Below are positions 1,331 through 9,283 of a stretch of DNA of 9,283 nucleotides, piece after piece; the first letter of the stretch is position 1; every line of letters starts with the position of its first letter. The DNA comes from a virus (taxonomy: Duplodnaviria > Heunggongvirae > Uroviricota > Caudoviricetes): positions 1 through 9,283 of the IMG/VR virus record IMGVR_UViG_2534681766_000007. The stretch is one strand, 5' to 3'. Made by a program: the position numbers and the translations under genes. Under the pieces are notes generated by a model. It saw only the letters and a program-made list of their open reading frames with translations. It was not told the origin of the DNA and searched no databases.

Positions 1331-1345
1331 GCTTTTTTATACTAA
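1331..1345. other. attL: phage lambda att common core (GCTTTTTTATACTAA) in attL (B-O-P') configuration
   Basis: Exact 15-bp lambda core at 1331-1345. Flanks read CTGCTTTTTTATACTAAGTTG, i.e. bacterial B arm on the ybhC side and phage P' arm on the int side. Core lies 47 bp upstream of the ybhC start. Confidence 0.9.
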
Positions 1346-1418
1346 GTTGGCATTATAAAAAAGCATTGCTTATCAATTTATTGCAACGAACAGGTCACTA
1401 TCAGTCAAAATAAAATCA
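1346..1418. promoter_or_regulatory. attP P' arm: IHF H'-type site and tandem Int arm-type binding sites
   Basis: TATCAATTTATTG at 1371-1383 fits the IHF consensus WATCAANNNNTTR. Tandem arm-type-like repeats AGGTCACTAT (1392-1401) and CAGTCAAAAT (1402-1411), with a third AAATCATTAT-like copy next to the int stop. Arrangement matches the lambda P' arm as I remember it. Confidence 0.7.
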
Positions 1419-2489
1419 TTATTTGATTTCAATTTTGTCCCACTCCCTGCCTCTGTCATCACGATACTGTGATGCCATGGTGTCCGACTTATGCCCGAGA
1501 AGATGTTGAGCAAACTTATCGCTTATCTGCTTCTCATAGAGTCTTGCAGACAAACTGCGCAACTCGTGAAAGGTAGGCGGATCCCCTTCGAAGGAAAGAC
1601 CTGATGCTTTTCGTGCGCGCATAAAATACCTTGATACTGTGCCGGATGAAAGCGGTTCACGACGAGTAGATGCAATTATGGTTTCTCCGCCAAGAATCTC
1701 TTTGCATTTATCAAGTGTTTCCTTCATTGATATCCCGAGAGCATCAACATGCAATGTTGTTGGGATGGCAATTTTTACGCCTGTTTTGCTTTGCTCGACA
1801 TAAAGATATCCATCTACGATATCAGACCACTTCATTTCGCATAAATCACCAACTCGTTGCCCGGTAACAACAGCCAGTTCCATTGCAAGTCTGAGCCAAC
1901 ATGGTGATGATTCTGCTGCTTGATAAATTTTCAGGTATTCGTCAGCCGTAAGTCTTGATCTCCTTACCTCTGATTTTGCTGCGCGAGTGGCAGCGACAGG
2001 GGTTGTTGTTATATGGCCTTCAGCTATTGCCTCTCGGAATGCATCGCTCAGTGTTGATCTGATTAACTTGGCTGACGCCGCCTTGCCCTCGTCTATGTAT
2101 CCATTGAGCATTGCCGCAATTTCTTTTGTGGTGATGTCTTCAAGTGGAGCATCAGGCAGACCCCTCCTTATTGCTTTAATTTTGCTCATGTAATTTATGA
2201 GTGTCTTCTGCTTGATTCCTCTGCTGGCCAGGATTTTTTCGTAGCGATCAAGCCATGAATGTAACGTAACGGAATTATCACTGTTGATTCTCGCTGTCAG
2301 AGGCTTGTGTTTGTGTCCTGAAAATAACTCAATGTTGGCCTGTATGGCTTCAGTGATTGCAATTCGCCTGTCTCTGCCTAATCCAAACTCTTTACCCGTC
2401 CTTGGGTCCCTGTAGCAGTAATATCCATTGTTTCTTATATAAAGGTTAGGGGGTAAATCCCGGCGCTCATGACTTCGCCTTCTTCCCAT
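1419..2489 (-). CDS. int: tyrosine site-specific integrase, phage lambda Int type (356 aa)
   Basis: Full-length ORF starting MGRRRSHERRDLPPNLYIRNNGYYCYRDPRTGKEFGLGRDRR and ending HLLGHKSDTMASQYRDDRGREWDKIEIK; recognised as essentially lambda Int (catalytic C-terminal domain present). ATG at 2487-2489, stop at 1419-1421, 74 bp from the att core as in lambda. Confidence 0.96.
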   Translation of the reverse strand: MGRRRSHERRDLPPNLYIRNNGYYCYRDPRTGKEFGLGRDRRIAITEAIQANIELFSGHKHKPLTARINSDNSVTLHSWLDRYEKILASRGIKQKTLINYMSKIKAIRRGLPDAPLEDITTKEIAAMLNGYIDEGKAASAKLIRSTLSDAFREAIAEGHITTTPVAATRAAKSEVRRSRLTADEYLKIYQAAESSPCWLRLAMELAVVTGQRVGDLCEMKWSDIVDGYLYVEQSKTGVKIAIPTTLHVDALGISMKETLDKCKEILGGETIIASTRREPLSSGTVSRYFMRARKASGLSFEGDPPTFHELRSLSARLYEKQISDKFAQHLLGHKSDTMASQYRDDRGREWDKIEIK

Positions 2490-2685
2490 TTCTGATCCTC
2501 TTCAAAAGGCTACCTGTTACTGGTCGATTTAAGTCAACCTTTACCGCTGATTCGTGGAACAGATACTCTCTTCCATCCTTAACCGGAGGAGGGAATATCC
2601 TGCACTCGCGTACCCATCGACGAACTGTTTCAAGGCTTCTTGGGCGTCGCTGGCGTGCGTTCCACTCCTGAAGTGTCAAGTACAT
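2467..2685 (-). CDS. xis: excisionase Xis (72 aa), lambda type
   Basis: ORF MYLTLQEWNARQRRPRSLETVRRWVRECRIFPPPVKDGREYLFHESAVKVDLNRPVTGSLLKRIRNGKKAKS recognised as lambda Xis. Its 3' end overlaps the int start by 23 bp (2467-2489), the known lambda arrangement. Confidence 0.95.
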   Translation of the reverse strand: MYLTLQEWNARQRRPRSLETVRRWVRECRIFPPPVKDGREYLFHESAVKVDLNRPVTGSLLKRIRNGKKAKS

Positions 2686-3123: not shown

Positions 3124-3726
3124 ATGAGCTATTTTCTGCGCAAAAAATGGATGGTAAATTTGTCCGGGTCAGGAAAAATTTTATGGGCGCTAAACATGAA
3201 AAAAGATTCGTATCCTTATTTGATTTGCATGACAGTTTCAGGGCTGATCTTTATTTTCCTTTTCTTCTGGTGGCGGGCAGATATCTACAGGGTCACGTTT
3301 CTTAATCAGAGTATATCCCACTATTACATTCTGTTTAGCATGGGAATAGCTTTTCTGTTATCTCTGTTTTGGGTTAAGAAGGGGATAGTAAAACAAAGAG
3401 GCTGGAAGAGTCTGTCAGCATACCTTAAGGTTTATGCAGGGATGTGCATATTTGCTGGATTTTTTCTGATTATACCCCTTACGACACTAACTTATTTTTT
3501 GCCTGGAGAGACATCGTCTTATGTTGCACCGTATCGGTATACTTCCGGTAGTTCAAAAAGTTGTTCTGGAGCTGAGGTGGATGACCCCGATCTACATGAG
3601 AATATTCGCATTTGCTATCCGTATGGCAATTATGAGTACGATAATATTATCTATGTTGAAAAGAAAATTAATATATTAGGTGCGGTAGTGACATATGCAC
3701 AGACCGCGCGTGATGATACTGAATGA
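3124..3726 (+). CDS. hypothetical membrane protein, three predicted TM helices plus ~75-aa Cys-containing C-terminal domain (predicted periplasmic); AT-rich accessory (moron) gene, candidate superinfection-exclusion or defence factor
   Basis: 200-codon ORF on the opposite strand to the surrounding lambda early-left genes. Hydrophobic segments YPYLICMTVSGLIFIFLFFWW, HYYILFSMGIAFLLSLFWV and YLKVYAGMCIFAGFFLIIPLTTLTYFL; the TM2-TM3 loop is K/R-rich (KKGIVKQRGWK), consistent with N-in/C-out topology. Start is ambiguous (ATG 3124 or 3196, both with weak SD). A 60-nt sample (3301-3360) has 20 G+C, versus 26 of 60 in an int sample. No recognisable family. Confidence 0.6.
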   Translation: MSYFLRKKWMVNLSGSGKILWALNMKKDSYPYLICMTVSGLIFIFLFFWWRADIYRVTFLNQSISHYYILFSMGIAFLLSLFWVKKGIVKQRGWKSLSAYLKVYAGMCIFAGFFLIIPLTTLTYFLPGETSSYVAPYRYTSGSSKSCSGAEVDDPDLHENIRICYPYGNYEYDNIIYVEKKINILGAVVTYAQTARDDTE

Positions 3727-3936: not shown

Positions 3937-4158
3937 TCACTTCGAACCTCTCTGTTTACTGATAAGCTCCAGATCTTGCTGGCAACTGGCACAAGTCCGA
4001 CAACCCTGAACGGCCAGTCGTCTTCGTTCATCTATCGGATCGCCACACTCACAACAATGAGTGGCAGATATAGCCTGGTGGTTCAGGCGGCGCATTTTTA
4101 TTGCTGTGTTGCGCTGTAATTCTTCAATTTCTGATGCTGAATCAATTATGTCTGCCAT
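3937..4158 (-). CDS. TraR/DksA-family C4-type zinc-finger protein (lambda Orf73-like), 73 aa
   Basis: ORF MADIIDSASEIEELQRNTAIKMRRLNHQAISATHCCECGDPIDERRRLAVQGCRTCASCQQDLELISKQRGSK contains the CxxC...CxxC motif of the TraR/DksA zinc-finger family; ATG at 4156-4158. Size and position match the lambda TraR homologue as I recall it. Confidence 0.85.
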   Translation of the reverse strand: MADIIDSASEIEELQRNTAIKMRRLNHQAISATHCCECGDPIDERRRLAVQGCRTCASCQQDLELISKQRGSK

Positions 4159-4204
4159 CTTTCATTAATCCCTGAATTGTTGGTTAATACGCTTGAGGGT
4201 GAAT

Positions 4205-4234
4205 GCGAATAATAAAAAAGGAGCCTGTAGCTCC
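4205..4234 (-). terminator. intrinsic-terminator-like hairpin (GGAGC-loop-GCTCC) followed by a T-tract on the minus strand
   Basis: On the minus strand the sequence reads GGAGCTACAGGCTCC then TTTTTTATTATT; located between the stop of the upstream ORF (4257) and the Orf73 start (4158). Confidence 0.45.
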
Positions 4235-4256
4235 CTGATGATTTTGCTTTTCATGT

Positions 4257-4538
4257 TCACCGTTCCTTAAAGACGCCGTTCAACATGCCGATCGCCAGGC
4301 TTAAATGAGTCGGTGTGAATCCCATCAGCGTTACCGTTTCGCGGTGCTTCTTTAGTACGCTACGGCAAATGTCATCGACGTTTTTATCCGGAAACTGCTG
4401 TCTGGCTTTTTTGATTTCAGAATTAGCCTGACGGGCAATGCTGCGAAGGGCGTTTTCTTGCTGAGGTGTCATTGAACAAGCCCCATGTCGGCAAGCATAA
4501 GCACACAGAATATGAAGCCCGCTGCCAGAAAAATGCAT
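4257..4538 (-). CDS. small early-left protein (lambda orf61-region homologue); start uncertain, alternative start at 4472 gives 71 aa beginning MTPQQENALRSIARQ
   Basis: Open frame in the ORF track (93 aa). The ATG at 4538 lies immediately after an in-frame TGA, so the N-terminus may be an ORF-finder artefact; the ATG at 4470-4472 overlaps the stop of a 27-codon ORF in ATGA configuration. Confidence 0.45.
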   Translation of the reverse strand: MHFSGSGLHILCAYACRHGACSMTPQQENALRSIARQANSEIKKARQQFPDKNVDDICRSVLKKHRETVTLMGFTPTHLSLAIGMLNGVFKER

Positions 4539-4548
4539 TCAGTGGTTG

Positions 4549-4740
4549 TCATACCTGGTCTCTCTCATCTGCTTCTGCTTTCGCCACCATCATTTCCAGC
4601 TTTTGTGAAAGGGATGCGGCTAACGTATGAAATTCTTCGTCTGTTTCTACTGGTATTGGCACAAACCTGACTCCAATTTGAGCGAGGCTATGTGCCATCT
4701 CGATACTCGTTCTTAACTCAACGGGAGATGCTTTGTGCAT
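4549..4740 (-). CDS. small early-left protein (lambda Orf63-like), 63 aa
   Basis: ORF MHKASPVELRTSIEMAHSLAQIGVRFVPIPVETDEEFHTLAASLSQKLEMMVAKAEADERDQV; ATG at 4738-4740 preceded by a good SD (GGGGAG, 4-nt spacer); length and position match lambda orf63. Confidence 0.7.
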   Translation of the reverse strand: MHKASPVELRTSIEMAHSLAQIGVRFVPIPVETDEEFHTLAASLSQKLEMMVAKAEADERDQV

Positions 4741-4868
4741 ACAGCTCCCCGTTTATTATTTATCTCCTCAGCCAGCCGCTGGGCTTTCAGCGGATTTCGG
4801 ATAACAGAAAGGCCGGGAAATCCCCAGCCTCGCTTTGTAACGGAGTAGACGAAAGTGATCGCGCCTAA
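4713..4868 (-). pseudogene. 5'-truncated orf60a-like gene; N-terminal coding sequence lost at a deletion joint
   Basis: C-terminal 52 codons (GAITFVYSVTKRGWGFPGLSVIRNPLKAQRLAEEINNKRGAVCTKHLPLS) match lambda Orf60a as I recall it and overlap orf63 by 28 bp as in lambda. Upstream of about 4868 the frame runs into antisense tail-fibre sequence. Confidence 0.5.
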
Positions 4869-6229
4869 TGGATGAAACGAACAAGAAAGCGCCCTTAAAT
4901 AGTCCTGCACTGACCGGAACGCCAACAACGCCAACTGCGCCAAAAGGTACTAATAATACTCAGATCGCAAGTACGGCTTATGTGATGGCCGCGATTGCCG
5001 CCCTTGTAGACTCGTCGCCTGACGCACTGAATACGCTGAACGAGTTAGCGGCGGCGCTGGGCAACGACCCGAATTTTGCGACCACCATGACTAACGCGCT
5101 TGCGGGTAAGCAACCGAAAGATGCCACCCTGACGGCGCTGGCCGGGCTTGCTACTGCGGCAGACAGGTTTCCGTATTTTACGGGGAATGATGTCGCCAGC
5201 CTGGCAACCCTGACAAAAGTCGGGCGGGATATTCTTGCGAAATCGACCGTTGCTGCCGTTATCGAATACCTCGGTTTACAGGAAACGGTAAATCAGGCTT
5301 CTGGCGCATTACAGAAAAACCAGAACGGCGCAGATATTCCGGGAAAAGATACCTTCACCAAAAACATTGGTGCCTGCCGCGCATATAGCGCATGGCTGAA
5401 TATTGGTGGCGATAGTCAGGTCTGGACAACTGCGCAATTTATTTCGTGGCTGGAGAGTCAGGGGGCATTTAACCATCCTTACTGGATGTGCAAAGGCTCA
5501 TGGGCTTATGCAAATAATAAGGTTATTACAGATACAGGTTGCGGAAATATTTGTCTTGCAGGTGCTGTGGTGGAAGTTATTGGCACTCGCGGCGCAATGA
5601 CCATACGCGTTACTACGCCGAGCACGTCCAGCGGTGGCGGAATTACTAACGCTCAATTCACTTATATTAATCATGGTGATGCTTACGCTCCTGGCTGGCG
5701 ACGAGACTACAACACGAAAAACCAGCAGCCTGCATTTGCTTTAGGGCAAACAGGACGCAGGGTCGCAAATGATAAAGCTGTTGGCTGGAACTGGAATAGC
5801 GGTGTTTATGATGCAGATATCAGTGGTGCATCGACATTAATCCTCCACTTCAATATGAATGCGGGGAGTTGCCCTGCTGTACAGTTCCGCGTGAATTACA
5901 GGAACGGCGGTATTTTTTATCGTTCAGCGCGTGATGGTTATGGCTTTGAAGCTAACTGGTCAGAGTTTTACACCACAACACGCAAACCCTCTGCGGGGGA
6001 TGTTGGTGCATATACGCAGGCAGAATGTAACTCAAGGTTTATTACAGGTATTCGCCTTGGCGGTCTGTCATCTGTTCAGACATGGAAAGGCCCCGGCTGG
6101 TCTGACAGGTCAGGTTATGTCGTTACGGGTTCAGTTAACGGAAACCGTGATGAATTAATTGATACAACTCAGGCAAGGCCAATTCAGTATTGCATTAATG
6201 GGACGTGGTATAACGCGGGGAGTATTTAA
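4868..6229 (+). CDS. side tail-fibre protein, C-terminal portion (5'-truncated at deletion joint): constant region to about 5284 plus variable domain Sv
   Basis: 453-aa ORF containing the conserved Stf stretch KAPLNSPALTGTPT...IASTAYVMAAIAALVDSSPDALNTLNELAAALGNDPNFATTMTNALAGKQPKDATLTALAGLATAADRFPYFTGNDVASLATLTKVGRDILAKSTVAAVIEYLGLQETVN, which normally sits in the C-terminal third of lambdoid side tail fibres. No SD before the in-frame ATG at 4868; the N-terminal part of the gene is absent. Confidence 0.85.
   Translation: MDETNKKAPLNSPALTGTPTTPTAPKGTNNTQIASTAYVMAAIAALVDSSPDALNTLNELAAALGNDPNFATTMTNALAGKQPKDATLTALAGLATAADRFPYFTGNDVASLATLTKVGRDILAKSTVAAVIEYLGLQETVNQASGALQKNQNGADIPGKDTFTKNIGACRAYSAWLNIGGDSQVWTTAQFISWLESQGAFNHPYWMCKGSWAYANNKVITDTGCGNICLAGAVVEVIGTRGAMTIRVTTPSTSSGGGITNAQFTYINHGDAYAPGWRRDYNTKNQQPAFALGQTGRRVANDKAVGWNWNSGVYDADISGASTLILHFNMNAGSCPAVQFRVNYRNGGIFYRSARDGYGFEANWSEFYTTTRKPSAGDVGAYTQAECNSRFITGIRLGGLSSVQTWKGPGWSDRSGYVVTGSVNGNRDELIDTTQARPIQYCINGTWYNAGSI
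5259..5284. repeat. 26-bp Gin/Pin/Hin/Cin-type crossover site, left end of invertible segment (TTATCGAATACCTCGGTTTACAGGAA)
   Basis: Close to the Mu gix site as I recall it (TTATCCAAAACCTCGGTTTACAGGAA). Inner 25 bp (5268-5292, ACCTCGGTTTACAGGAAACGGTAAA) is a perfect inverted repeat of 8304-8328. Lies inside the tail-fibre reading frame at the constant/variable boundary (EYLGLQETVN). Confidence 0.85.
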
Positions 6230-6231
6230 CG

Positions 6232-6765
6232 ATGATGCACTTAAAAAACATTACTGCTGGCAACCCTAAAACAAAAGAGCAATACCAGCTAACAAAGCAA
6301 TTTAACATCAAATGGCTTTATTCAGATGATGGAAAAAACTGGTATGAGGAACAAAAGAATTTCCAGCCAGACACTTTGAAAATGGTCTATGACCATAACG
6401 GCGTTATTATTTGTATTGAAAAGGATGTTTCAGCAATTAATCCAGAGGGTGCAAGCGTCGTTGAATTACCTGATATTACAGCAAATCGCCGGGCTGATAT
6501 TTCGGGGAAATGGATGTTCAAAGATGGCGTAGTGATAAAGCGAACTTATACCGAGGAAGAGCAGAGGCAACAAGCGGAAAATGAAAAGCAAAGCCTGTTG
6601 CAACTTGTCAGGGATAAAACCCAGCTATGGGACTCACAGCTACGGCTGGGCATCATTTCCGACGAGAATAAACAAAAATTAACCGAGTGGATGCTCTATG
6701 CGCAGAAAGTCGAATCTACAGACACTTCTGGCCTGCCAGTAACGTTTCCCGAACAACCAGAATGA
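6232..6765 (+). CDS. tfa: tail-fibre assembly protein (Tfa / U-type chaperone), 177 aa
   Basis: Starts 2 bp after the tail-fibre stop (TAACGATG). N-terminus [24 protein letters not shown] and overall length typical of Tfa; paralogous to the oppositely oriented ORF at 6794-7321. Confidence 0.85.
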   Translation: MMHLKNITAGNPKTKEQYQLTKQFNIKWLYSDDGKNWYEEQKNFQPDTLKMVYDHNGVIICIEKDVSAINPEGASVVELPDITANRRADISGKWMFKDGVVIKRTYTEEEQRQQAENEKQSLLQLVRDKTQLWDSQLRLGIISDENKQKLTEWMLYAQKVESTDTSGLPVTFPEQPE

Positions 6766-6793: not shown

Positions 6794-7321
6794 TTACTCT
6801 GGTTTTTGTGGCCATTCAGGATTTGCCGTATCCACACGGCTGACCAGAACACTGTAGCGTTCCCATGCTTCCAGTCGTGTGCGTTCCTCGTCTGTTGCCA
6901 TATTCAGCCTGACAGCGCGTTCCAGCGGTTGGATGACTGATTCAGCTTCGGAAAGCAATGCGGCCTTTTGTGATTCGGCCTGTTGTTGTTGCTCGTCTGC
7001 CGTATAAATCCGTTTAACCACAGCTCCGTCCCTAAACATCCACTTACCGGAATCATCAGCGCGGCGGTTGGCTGTAATATCTGGAACCTCAACGACGCTA
7101 TAACCTTCAGGGTTAAGCGTGGAGGCATCTTTGGTGATGGCGACAATAATATTATTTGCATCGTAAACAATCTTTATTGTGTCTGGCTGAAAGTTTTTCA
7201 CTTCCTCATACCAGTTTTTTCCGTCTTCGGACCATAACCAGATAACATCAAAATTCTTTGTTAGCTGATATTGTTCTTTTGTTTTTGGTTTTCCAGACTT
7301 AATATTTTTTAAATGCTGCAT
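6794..7321 (-). CDS. tfa: alternate tail-fibre assembly protein (Tfa' / U'), 175 aa
   Basis: N-terminus [24 protein letters not shown] is paralogous to the plus-strand Tfa, with a divergent C-terminal half; start ATG at 7319-7321, 3 bp after the Sv' stop. Confidence 0.85.
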
Positions 7322-7324
7322 AAA

Positions 7325-8323
7325 TTACACCTGTACGACGTTATACCATGTGCCATTGATGTATTTTTGTATTGGTCTGAATACTGCCGGATCATCGCCA
7401 TCAACTGCACCGATAATGCCAAGCCCCGTAATTGCATGACCTGATTTCTCATACATCACGCCTTTTTGCATAGTCTGAACAACACGTGTACCAAGTCGGA
7501 CATCTCTCACATAACGTGGGTCAAAATTACCATAATTGCCGGGAATAACTTGCGCACCGCAAAGCCAGTTGCCATTGTTGTCCATGTACGCCTGACCATC
7601 GGTGCCATTGGCTGTCCTTGAGTTATTAATCATGTAGATGCCAAATTGCTTATTCCCCAGTCCACCAATCATAAATTTGCGATCAGCGTGGTCCTGACGA
7701 AGTAATGCCTGCGCACCATCGGTGGATACCGCATTGCGTCCCAAAATAACATTCTGGTCACGCATATGAATCCACATGCCGGTACTACTGTTAATTGCAA
7801 AACGGTTTGCAAATATATCCCCTGTAACATCAAGACCATGCCCCATGCTTATCCGACCAGTTCTGAGATTAAGCGTAAAGGGGCGTAGTGGCCCTATATC
7901 ACCATTTTCTCCCTCATTCTCTCGTGTAGGGATGATATGCAGGCATTCTTCAGAGCGACGAAAAATAGCACCAAAAGATGAATTAAATATCCTCAGTGCA
8001 TTGACTGTCGATATTTTTACTTCACTGCTGAAAAGGGCTTTAACAAGGACAGACAAAGCATCCCATTTAAGAGTCATCAGGTCTTTTGTTGTGGTGCTCT
8101 GGCGGCTTCTCCATTTGAAATATTCATTGCCGTTGTCGCCTGTTTCAAACCACATGTATGAATCAGTGTCGCTGTCGGCATTATTTTTAAAACCAATCTT
8201 TGCCCAGTCAGTATTTCTAATCCAGGCAAGGATTGAGTCGTTTTCAAAAGTAAGCCCACCGGACAAGGTATCGCCATTCTTTTGCACGGCGTTCCTGGCC
8301 CTGTTTACCGTTTCCTGTAAACC
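7325..8323 (-). CDS. alternate tail-fibre variable C-terminal domain (Sv'); no start of its own, expressed only when inversion joins it to the constant region
   Basis: Reading from the right crossover site on the minus strand gives ...YLGLQETVNRARNAVQKNGDTLSGGLTFENDSILAW..., in frame with the constant-region motif and continuing to a stop at 7325-7327. Ends ...FRPIQKYINGTWYNVVQV, parallel to the Sv ending ...RPIQYCINGTWYNAGSI. Confidence 0.8.
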   Translation of the reverse strand, partial: GLQETVNRARNAVQKNGDTLSGGLTFENDSILAWIRNTDWAKIGFKNNADSDTDSYMWFETGDNGNEYFKWRSRQSTTTKDLMTLKWDALSVLVKALFSSEVKISTVNALRIFNSSFGAIFRRSEECLHIIPTRENEGENGDIGPLRPFTLNLRTGRISMGHGLDVTGDIFANRFAINSSTGMWIHMRDQNVILGRNAVSTDGAQALLRQDHADRKFMIGGLGNKQFGIYMINNSRTANGTDGQAYMDNNGNWLCGAQVIPGNYGNFDPRYVRDVRLGTRVVQTMQKGVMYEKSGHAITGLGIIGAVDGDDPAVFRPIQKYINGTWYNVVQV

Positions 8324-8337
8324 GAGGTTTTAGATAA
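8312..8337. repeat. 26-bp Gin/Pin/Hin/Cin-type crossover site, right end of invertible segment (TTCCTGTAAACCGAGGTTTTAGATAA)
   Basis: One mismatch to the Mu gixL sequence as I recall it (TTCCTGTAAACCGAGGTTTTGGATAA); inverted with respect to the site at 5259-5284. Confidence 0.85.
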
Positions 8338-8391
8338 TGGCGGTTTCTGGCCTGCATGGCATGATTTGTGCTTTTGGACGGGAGATTCAGC

Positions 8392-8625
8392 GTGCTGATT
8401 GGCTATGTAAGGGTATCAACAAATGACCAGAATACAGACCTGCAACGAAACGCTCTTGTTTGTGCAGGATGTGAACAAATATTTGAAGATAAATTAAGCG
8501 GAATAAGGACAGGCCGACCTGGATTAAAACGTGCTTTAAAGCGCCTTCAAAAAGGTGACGCACTGGTTGTCTGGAAACTGGACTGACTGGGTCACTGTAT
8601 GCGGCATCTTGTCGTGCTGGTGGTG
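8392..8625 (+). pseudogene. pin: serine DNA invertase (Pin/Gin/Hin/Cin family) remnant: N-terminal catalytic fragment interrupted by in-frame TGA after codon 64, then 3'-truncated
   Basis: GTG at 8392 with GGAG 7 nt upstream; translation VLIGYVRVSTNDQNTDLQRNALVCAGCEQIFEDKLSGIRTGRPGLKRALKRLQKGDALVVWKLD carries the invertase active-site serine context (VRVSTNDQ). TGA at 8584-8586 where family members have an Arg codon (DRLGRS), a few more invertase-like codons (MRHLVVLV), then unrelated sequence. The helix-turn-helix DNA-binding C-terminus is absent. Confidence 0.85.
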
Positions 8626-8718
8626 GAAGCCTGGAAAAAGTATCGGGGGTTGCTGAACCGTGTTGATACATCAACTGCACCGGATATTGAATGGCCAACA
8701 GGACCCATTATCGAATAG
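8626..8718 (+). pseudogene. 3'-terminal fragment of a tail-fibre assembly (tfa) gene fused in frame to the pin remnant
   Basis: Translation [30 protein letters not shown] then stop (TAG 8716-8718). This matches the Tfa C-terminal pattern seen in both tfa genes of this window (...[26 protein letters not shown] and ...LTEWMLYAQKVESTDTSGLPVTFPEQPE) and the lambda Tfa C-terminus as I recall it. Confidence 0.6.
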
Positions 8719-8729
8719 TGCATTACGAA

Positions 8730-8762
8730 CTGCAGGATATTATATGGGATAATATTCTGCAG
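8730..8762. terminator. 13-bp stem hairpin (CTGCAGGATATTA / TAATATTCTGCAG, one G-U pair) followed by TTTATT; putative bidirectional terminator between the convergent pin/tfa remnant and the GGDEF gene
   Basis: Inverted repeat read directly from sequence at 8730-8742 and 8750-8762 with a 7-nt loop; 30 bp upstream of the GGDEF gene stop (8792-8794) on the opposite strand. Confidence 0.4.
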
Positions 8763-8791
8763 TTTATTGGGGCTGTATTTTAAAAAGGTGT

Positions 8792-9283
8792 TTATTTTGA
8801 GTGAGTTATCACCTTGTTTTTTCCGGTTCTTTTGGCTTGATATAACGCTTTATCGGCATTGACTAACATTTCAGATGGACTGAGATTATTCTCTTTTGAA
8901 GTAAAGCAACCAATACTGACAGTTATTTTCTCAGGTCCATGCGATAATAATTTTTCCGAGCATTGCTCTTCAATGTTTTTTCTGATTCGCTCTGCAATTG
9001 ATAGCAAGAGCTTTTGAGTATTACCTTTAATGATAATACCGAACTCCTCACCGCCTAAGCGCCCTAATATATCCTCTTTCCTGATGGATTTTTTTATTAT
9101 TCTGGTAACCATTACTATGACTTGATCACCCATATGATGCCCCCATTTGTCATTGATGCTTTTGAAATTGTCAATATCTAACATTATTACTGAGAAATCA
9201 TGGTGTTTTGATATATTCTTCAATGAGTCAATAAAGTATCTTCTATTGTATGTATTCGTTAGTGGATCATGAATTGCCATATG
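8792..9283 (-). CDS. GGDEF-domain diguanylate cyclase, C-terminal catalytic domain (5' end of gene lies beyond the window)
   Basis: Frame contains the GGDEF-domain start motif DPLTNTYNRRYF, the active-site motif GGEEF (LGRLGGEEFGIII) and an RxxD I-site (RKED) five residues upstream of it. The frame is open to the window edge, so the listed Met is probably internal. AT-rich: 20 G+C in the 60 nt 8881-8940. Confidence 0.8.
   Translation of the reverse strand, partial: HMAIHDPLTNTYNRRYFIDSLKNISKHHDFSVIMLDIDNFKSINDKWGHHMGDQVIVMVTRIIKKSIRKEDILGRLGGEEFGIIIKGNTQKLLLSIAERIRKNIEEQCSEKLLSHGPEKITVSIGCFTSKENNLSPSEMLVNADKALYQAKRTGKNKVITHSK

Follow-up and report, generated by a model that had tools for sequence, protein, structure and literature searches.

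The open reading frame (ORF) with which the window ends (the window being the whole 9,283-nucleotide stretch of DNA that was analyzed) is assigned, with a probability of approximately 0.9, to the 3′ part of dgcX, which is carried as a moron by a lambdoid prophage of the HK97/lambda-att type, at its right end between tfa and sib/attP. Judged by its sequence identity, this ORF is the already published dgcX and not a new gene. DgcX was described by Richter et al. in 2014 as an additional diguanylate cyclase, expressed at very high levels, in the O104:H4 outbreak strain, with the gene also being carried by EAEC 55989, ETEC H10407, and others and located at lambda attB, adjoining prophage DNA (PMC4287979); its cyclase action in vivo was reported by Cimdins-Ahne et al. 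in 2023 (PMC10459773).

The dgcX part of the window occupies positions 8792 to 9283 on the minus strand and specifies residues 281 to 443 and the stop codon (8792 to 8794), the assignment being based on Pfam, TIGR00254, and allele identity. The ORF remains open to the window end at 9283, with 163 residues visible, and the gene extends approximately 840 bp farther. Residues 3 to 157 of this visible part matched the Pfam profile PF00990 (GGDEF; E = 7.1e-46; 156.3 bits against a curated cutoff of 23.8 bits), positions 1 to 161 of the 161-position profile being covered by window residues, such that the full GGDEF domain is present, and TIGR00254 was also matched (E = 3.7e-49; 166.6 bits, with a curated cutoff of 37.4 bits). 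The A-site motif GGEEF, corresponding to residues 357 to 361 of the full-length protein, was read from the sequence at 9041 to 9055 (minus strand), and the I-site RxxD motif (RKED, residues 348 to 351), which precedes GGEEF by five residues, was read at 9071 to 9082 (minus strand). The first-pass annotation of the window had proposed an AT-rich gene encoding a GGDEF domain with intact GGEEF and RxxD sites; the domain and its motifs are borne out by the profile matches and by reading of the sequence, and the base composition by a GC content of 34.3% for the window part of dgcX (29.5% for the full gene) compared with 53% for ybhC and 48% for the H10407 prophage. The tail-fiber genes and dgcX are convergently oriented.

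Compared with residues 281 to 443 of H10407 DgcX, the window protein is identical at 161 of 163 positions, and all 164 codons, stop included, are identical to those of the O104:H4 and strain 1409 alleles, while full-length dgcX alleles have 439 to 440 of 444 positions in common. The location of GGEEF at residues 357 to 361 agrees with the numbering of the E359A and E360A mutants (PMC10459773). Positions 8300 to 9283 of the window are present in 94 complete E. coli genomes at 99.6 to 99.8% identity, and no complete genome was found that matches the whole window at 80% coverage or more; extension of the locus, therefore, rests on genomes identical over the right end only. The extension locus is that of strain 1409 (L001, in which the window coordinate equals the L001 coordinate minus 3701), the attB regions of H10407 (L002) and O104:H4 (L005) being among the other loci. 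Extension past position 9283 in these near-identical genomes supplied the N-terminal part of the protein: the L001 gene spans 12494 to 13825 (1,332 bp) and encodes 443 amino acids, with an N-terminal MASE4 domain (E = 1.8e-36) and a C-terminal GGDEF domain (E = 9.4e-45) in the full-length protein of both L001 and L002. Because the window stops at residue 281, MASE4 is predicted to be intact in the source genome from relatives that are 99.8% identical. Farther along L001, ybhB is situated approximately 640 bp past dgcX, with bioA next, and the order dgcX-attR-ybhB-bioA was found in L001, L002, L005, and L010, in keeping with the earlier proposal that the gene is not the expected host neighbor, ybhB lying beyond attR in the extension loci.

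Placement of dgcX within the prophage is derived from mapping of the att cores. The locus is lambda attB, with ybhC, an att core, and int present in the window. The 15-bp lambda att core GCTTTTTTATACTAA has a single exact match in the window, at positions 1331 to 1345 (plus strand), between ybhC and int, where it forms the core of attL and the left end of the element, homology to HK97 starting at 1331. In L001, the same core is likewise found once, at 14463 to 14477, between dgcX and ybhB, and in H10407 two cores (L002 positions 2156 to 2170 and 49775 to 49789) flank a 47.6-kb lambdoid prophage with the order int-xis-...-J-lom-stf-tfa-dgcX-attR, in which an O-like replication gene and the tail tube gene are frameshifted. 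On the int side, window positions 1331 to 1500 share 99.4% identity with the core, P′ arm, and int of HK97, starting at the first core base; on the dgcX side, L001 positions 14278 to 14481 correspond to the sib, P arm, and core of HK97 (98%) and end 4 nucleotides beyond the core. A sib and P arm of the HK97/lambda type are thereby placed between dgcX and the second core, lambda matching at 27471 to 27741 (sib/attP) only. In genomes whose attB is empty, the match to the junction probe begins no earlier than query position 964, corresponding to the first core base at L001 position 14463. Because att cores flank dgcX and the HK97 sib and P arm adjoin the second core, the gene is considered to be part of the att-bounded element; on this sequence mapping, it is located inside attR, where its position and orientation are those of the lambda b-region. 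The suggestion of the first-pass annotation that the gene is prophage cargo at a lambda b-region site is supported by the cores on both sides, the sib and P arm, and the empty-attB probe, as well as by its location directly after tfa and its leftward transcription, and the gene was not found to lie outside attR, as a core separates dgcX from ybhB in both L001 and H10407. In view of the att mapping and the empty sites, dgcX is likely to be prophage cargo.

These data also bear on the notion that dgcX belongs to the core host genome, beyond the prophage, or specifies a degenerate GGDEF protein that is inactive like CdgI (YeaI), which is scarcely credible and is refuted by the att mapping and the intact motifs. 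CdgI does have the same MASE4-GGDEF architecture and is catalytically dead, but dgcX lies inside attR by att mapping, and it is absent from empty attB and from 86% of complete E. coli genomes, being present in 771 of 5,426 (14%). Moreover, the six translated dgcX alleles all specify 443 amino acids, with GGEEF and RxxD intact in six of six (RKED is kept in five, while EC9 has RKDD, still RxxD), and no inactivation of the catalytic domain was seen, the full-length protein being intact in the closest genomes. Overexpression of DgcX has been reported to increase cellulose and to repress motility, effects that are gone in the GGAAF and GGEAF mutants, such that mutation of the GGEEF glutamates abolishes the phenotypes (PMC10459773). 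The EC9 allele (L004 positions 7169 to 8500, in the argW-dsdC island) is the divergent one, its protein being identical at 417 of 444 positions (94%) and its DNA at approximately 90%, with a weaker −35 sequence (TTAATA) in its candidate promoter, and it may represent an older lineage of the dgcX cassette.

The boundaries of the dgcX cassette were delineated by alignment with empty sites, namely, the dgcX-free E. coli prophages of GN04530 (L008) and strain 3059 (L009). In both, the dgcX-linked type of tfa 3′ end is present, and its stop codon abuts a conserved hairpin element. Because related prophages without dgcX join the tfa stop to this hairpin element, dgcX is proposed to be an insertion (moron) of approximately 1.67 kb, of which the window holds positions 8707 to 9283. 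The left boundary of the cassette is at window positions ~8705 to 8708 (L001 ~12405), where homology to the dgcX-free prophages ends, and the right boundary is at L001 ~14073, homology resuming at L001 14074; the intervening DNA comprises the last few tfa codons, a 17-bp hairpin, dgcX, and 250 bp of upstream DNA. The order in HK97 and HK106 is tfa, approximately 124 bp of DNA, the conserved hairpin element of approximately 100 bp, sib, and the att core, with no gene in between. As the tfa of HK97 and HK106 is unlike the dgcX-linked tfa at the nucleotide level, these phages define the right boundary only, the left boundary being taken from L008 and L009.

Within the cassette, a 17-bp stem-loop followed by TTTATT on the plus strand (8727 to 8765) separates the tfa stub from the stop codon of dgcX. 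Its predicted free energy is −26.3 kcal/mol (z = −5.2), none of 200 shuffled sequences being equally stable, and it is kept in H10407 and MLI121 and missing at the empty sites. A simple terminator scan called nothing between 8500 and 9283, and across the whole cassette it returned two weak sites only, both elsewhere than at this hairpin; as the terminator rule did not call it, the hairpin is established by folding. It probably acts as a terminator that parts the convergent transcripts. Of the earlier proposal that the gene follows a tfa fragment and a terminator hairpin, the fragment and the hairpin were thus recovered as observed features, while the terminator role is a prediction. The best sigma-70-like site (TTGACA-17-TAGTAT, 10/12; L001 positions 13924 to 13896, minus strand) is found 70 to 100 bp upstream of the dgcX ATG and is designated a candidate promoter only, because such sites occur at chance frequency, promoter-like sites not being enriched in the cassette region (14 versus 13.2 expected from shuffles). 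Strong expression of dgcX from a single-copy reporter fusion has been reported (PMC4287979).

The conserved element of approximately 100 bp that adjoins the cassette (L001 positions 14074 to 14177; also L006 positions 2501 to 2605 and L008/L009 positions ~4100 to 4210) presents, on the minus strand and upstream of dgcX, an 11-bp hairpin followed by AUUUUCUUU. It may represent a leftward terminator or a recombination boundary and could plausibly insulate dgcX from leftward read-through. The element also follows tfa in HK97, HK106, and phi80 and occurs in thousands of E. coli genomes and some plasmids, where RefSeq sometimes labels it as a fragment of a “capsid/nucleocapsid protein.” Among Rfam candidates, CssrB was rejected for this element as a subthreshold, partial match (42.8 versus 76 bits), and the small RNA candidate IS009 (L001 positions 12298 to 12377; window ~8597 to 8676) was similarly rejected at 47.5 versus 117 bits (E = 3e-9); the latter match overlaps the tfa stub and is probably due to tfa sequence common to prophages and not to an RNA gene.

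Among the 771 carriers, 767 have at least 80% of dgcX covered, and the copy number per genome has a median of one and a maximum of two. The dgcX-sib-att-ybhB arrangement, i.e., insertion at attB, is found in 585 complete E. coli genomes. In MLI121, the tfa stub, hairpin, dgcX, and approximately 360 bp of upstream DNA are found beside zinT, where they terminate a different lambdoid prophage, and in EC9 the tfa stub, dgcX, and upstream DNA occur in the argW-dsdC island, which is the dgcX site reported for strain Fec101 (PMC10459773). The tfa 3′ stub accompanies dgcX at every insertion site. When full-length DgcX was used in a tblastn search of 50,697 phage records, none was found to contain dgcX, the matches being confined to the GGDEF domain at <40% identity, and dgcX was not detected among 72,556 plasmids by megablast, which matched only the conserved element of approximately 100 bp. 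In IMG/VR, the gene is present on 16 short predicted viral contigs only; it was otherwise seen in prophages and remnants, a negative result for phage records that does not prove its absence from packaged genomes. Among GTDB species representatives, dgcX was found in E. coli only, save for one contig of a “Bacillota bacterium” metagenome-assembled genome (MAG), in agreement with a published range limited to Escherichia (PMC10459773). This 2.5-kb contig (JAEWTL010000008.1; L027), whose encoded protein and E. coli DgcX share 100% identity, is probably a misbinned or contaminating E. coli contig.

A specialized-transduction origin was suggested by Richter et al. in 2014 (PMC4287979), and a 2023 review held that dgcX is not part of a mobile element; under such a scenario, dgcX would be host DNA taken up beside the att site by aberrant excision and would merely adjoin prophages. 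The absence of dgcX from isolated phage genomes and the chromosomal location of its closest paralogues, ycdT and yeaI, are compatible with this proposal, but we consider it improbable, as phage DNA is present on both sides of the gene (the tfa 3′ end borders it on one side, and the conserved lambdoid element borders it on the other, followed by sib, the P arm, and the att core), whereas a substitution of the gal-transducing type joins host DNA directly to the core, with neither sib nor P arm between them. Furthermore, identical phage-derived flanks accompany dgcX at three chromosomal sites. It is possible that dgcX ultimately arose from a host gene resembling ycdT/yeaI that was captured long ago, with recombination following.

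The prophage in which dgcX resides in the window, a moron-bearing lambdoid element as proposed above, is a decayed remnant of approximately 9 to 10 kb that keeps attL, int, xis, the tail-fiber module, and dgcX. The integrase gene (1419 to 2489, minus strand) is of the lambda/HK97 type and is intact, its product being identical to HK97 Int at 355 of 357 positions, and the adjacent ORF at 2467 to 2685 (minus strand) is annotated as an excisionase gene in H10407 and 13C1065T. Homology to H10407-type prophages was observed to end at 4867, the next ORF being the distal part of a tail-fiber gene. An internal deletion, running from the exo/bet region up to and including J, took nearly all of the prophage. 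A truncated DNA invertase gene of the Pin/Gin type (8368 to 8586, plus strand; 72 amino acids; PHROG DNA invertase, E = 4e-34), which is annotated as a “recombinase family protein” in L001, marks the decayed end of the tail-fiber module, and the 34-amino-acid tfa 3′ stub follows at 8614 to 8718 (plus strand; PHROG tail-fiber-assembly families, E ~1e-10). The remnant keeps intact int, xis, and attL, and probably attR, and it might still be excisable. Differently eroded attB remnants, namely, those of this window, of 13C1065T (which contains IS1 and lysis genes), and of strain 1409, all retain the right end with dgcX.

Several further features of these remnants were observed. Inverted repeats of 38 nucleotides (5255 to 5292 and 8304 to 8341; 92% complementary) contain TTCCTGTAAACCGAGGTTTT, which we take to resemble a Gin/Pin-type crossover site, and they flank two convergent pairs of tail-fiber tip and tfa genes (ORFs 4868 to 6765 on the plus strand and 6794 to 8287 on the minus strand). 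Since the adjoining DNA invertase gene is cut to 72 amino acids, the DNA between the repeats probably represents an invertible host-range segment that is now frozen. Between xis and a TraR/DksA-like gene (3937 to 4158, minus strand), an ORF at 3124 to 3726 (plus strand; approximately 38 to 40% GC) encodes a predicted membrane protein of 200 amino acids, with a counterpart in the H10407 prophage (L002 positions 3959 to 4561), and resembles a further cargo gene of the moron type. To the left of the truncated invertase gene, tfa stub, and dgcX, strain 1409 (L001 positions 1 to 12000) does not carry ybhC-int and instead carries DLP12-like genes (emrE, ybcK, rusA, quuD, a porin gene, essD, and rrrD), which suggests an inter-prophage rearrangement or a different lambdoid phage at attB.

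Prophage ends are hot spots for defense genes, and the window ends inside dgcX, which hid any partner genes from the first-pass annotation, where it had been proposed that the cyclase might belong to a signaling-based system whose partners lie past the window. That dgcX is a component of such a multigene signaling or antiphage system (CBASS-like or other) now appears very improbable: the DNA past dgcX consists solely of the 250-bp upstream region, the hairpin element, sib, attR, and ybhB, tfa is located on the other side, and the cassette moves as a single gene. Comparison of dgcX with the PADLOC-DB defense models returned no match, and no partner genes adjoin it on either side.

The prophage-borne dgcX described here is the same gene as that of O104:H4, EAEC 55989, and H10407, with which it shares the attB (ybhC-ybhB) site, the MASE4-GGDEF architecture, GGEEF at residues 357 to 361, and RxxD, although its host element is a short, eroded remnant in comparison with the larger prophages of O104:H4 and H10407. 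The closest full-length homologues of DgcX according to the literature are DgcT (YcdT) and CdgI (YeaI) of E. coli K-12, which have a similar MASE4-GGDEF architecture; their genes, however, are situated at core chromosomal loci with no prophage link, whereas dgcX is prophage borne. Among phage-encoded proteins, those with a GGDEF domain (PHROG 5594 and others, including examples from Bacillus phage SP-15, Acetobacter phage phiAX1, and E. coli phage vB_EcoS-683R6) have this domain in common with DgcX at <40% identity, but, unlike DgcX, none has MASE4 and none is encoded by a lambdoid b-region gene.

Morons of HK97 and HK022 were reportedly defined by Hendrix and colleagues, and the lambdoid morons and lambda b-region accessory genes include ea47, ea31, and ea59, as well as lom and bor. 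The dgcX gene resembles morons in being a single gene between neighbors that are contiguous in related phages and in having a deviant GC content, its own flanking hairpin, and its own upstream region, and it resembles the lambda b-region genes in its leftward transcription beside sib/attP. It has no sequence relationship with ea47, ea31, or ea59, however, and its product is a second-messenger synthase and not a surface or exclusion protein.

DgcX, with 443 amino acids, is predicted to reside in the inner membrane and to act as a diguanylate cyclase, MASE4 at the N terminus serving as the sensor and the GGDEF domain being located at the C terminus. In the PleD and WspR paradigms of GGDEF biochemistry, dimers make c-di-GMP from two GTP molecules, and the RxxD site mediates product inhibition; by analogy, GGDEF dimers of DgcX would condense two GTP molecules into c-di-GMP, the RxxD site would exert product inhibition, and MASE4 would gate this activity in response to a signal. 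Transcription of dgcX is envisaged to start in the 250-bp upstream region of the cassette itself and to end at the 17-bp hairpin. The c-di-GMP output would presumably act via the usual E. coli c-di-GMP effectors, such that the lysogen would acquire a conversion trait in which biofilm formation is promoted and motility is lowered, and the survival of dgcX in eroded prophages would be explained by such a trait. Expression of dgcX has been found to be very strong and to depend on both RpoD and RpoS (PMC4287979), and deletion of the gene in strain Fec101 had minor phenotypes only, with motility slightly increased in the mutant (PMC10459773).

A further, more speculative reading is that dgcX is a true lysogenic-conversion gene which benefits the phage, the surface of the lysogen being remodeled and the gene being selectively retained while the prophage erodes. 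Here, DgcX would increase matrix and decrease flagella, and superinfection would be limited or persistence in the gut improved as a consequence. We hold this to be doubtful at present; if true, it would represent a rare case of a temperate coliphage that directly rewires the second-messenger signaling of its host.

The DgcX papers describe the gene as “adjacent” to a prophage or deny that it belongs to a mobile element, while in the present analysis it is placed inside attR as an insertion. The increment over the published work is, therefore, the location of dgcX inside an att-bounded lambdoid genome and not merely beside a prophage. A contribution of DgcX to the profile of the 2011 O104:H4 outbreak strain, in both virulence and biofilm formation, has been suggested, which makes recognition of dgcX in a genome a useful annotation. 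Its insertion inside a prophage would explain the movement of dgcX between strains and sites, and lysogenization by itself is predicted to be sufficient for transfer of a c-di-GMP synthase that is expressed at a high level.
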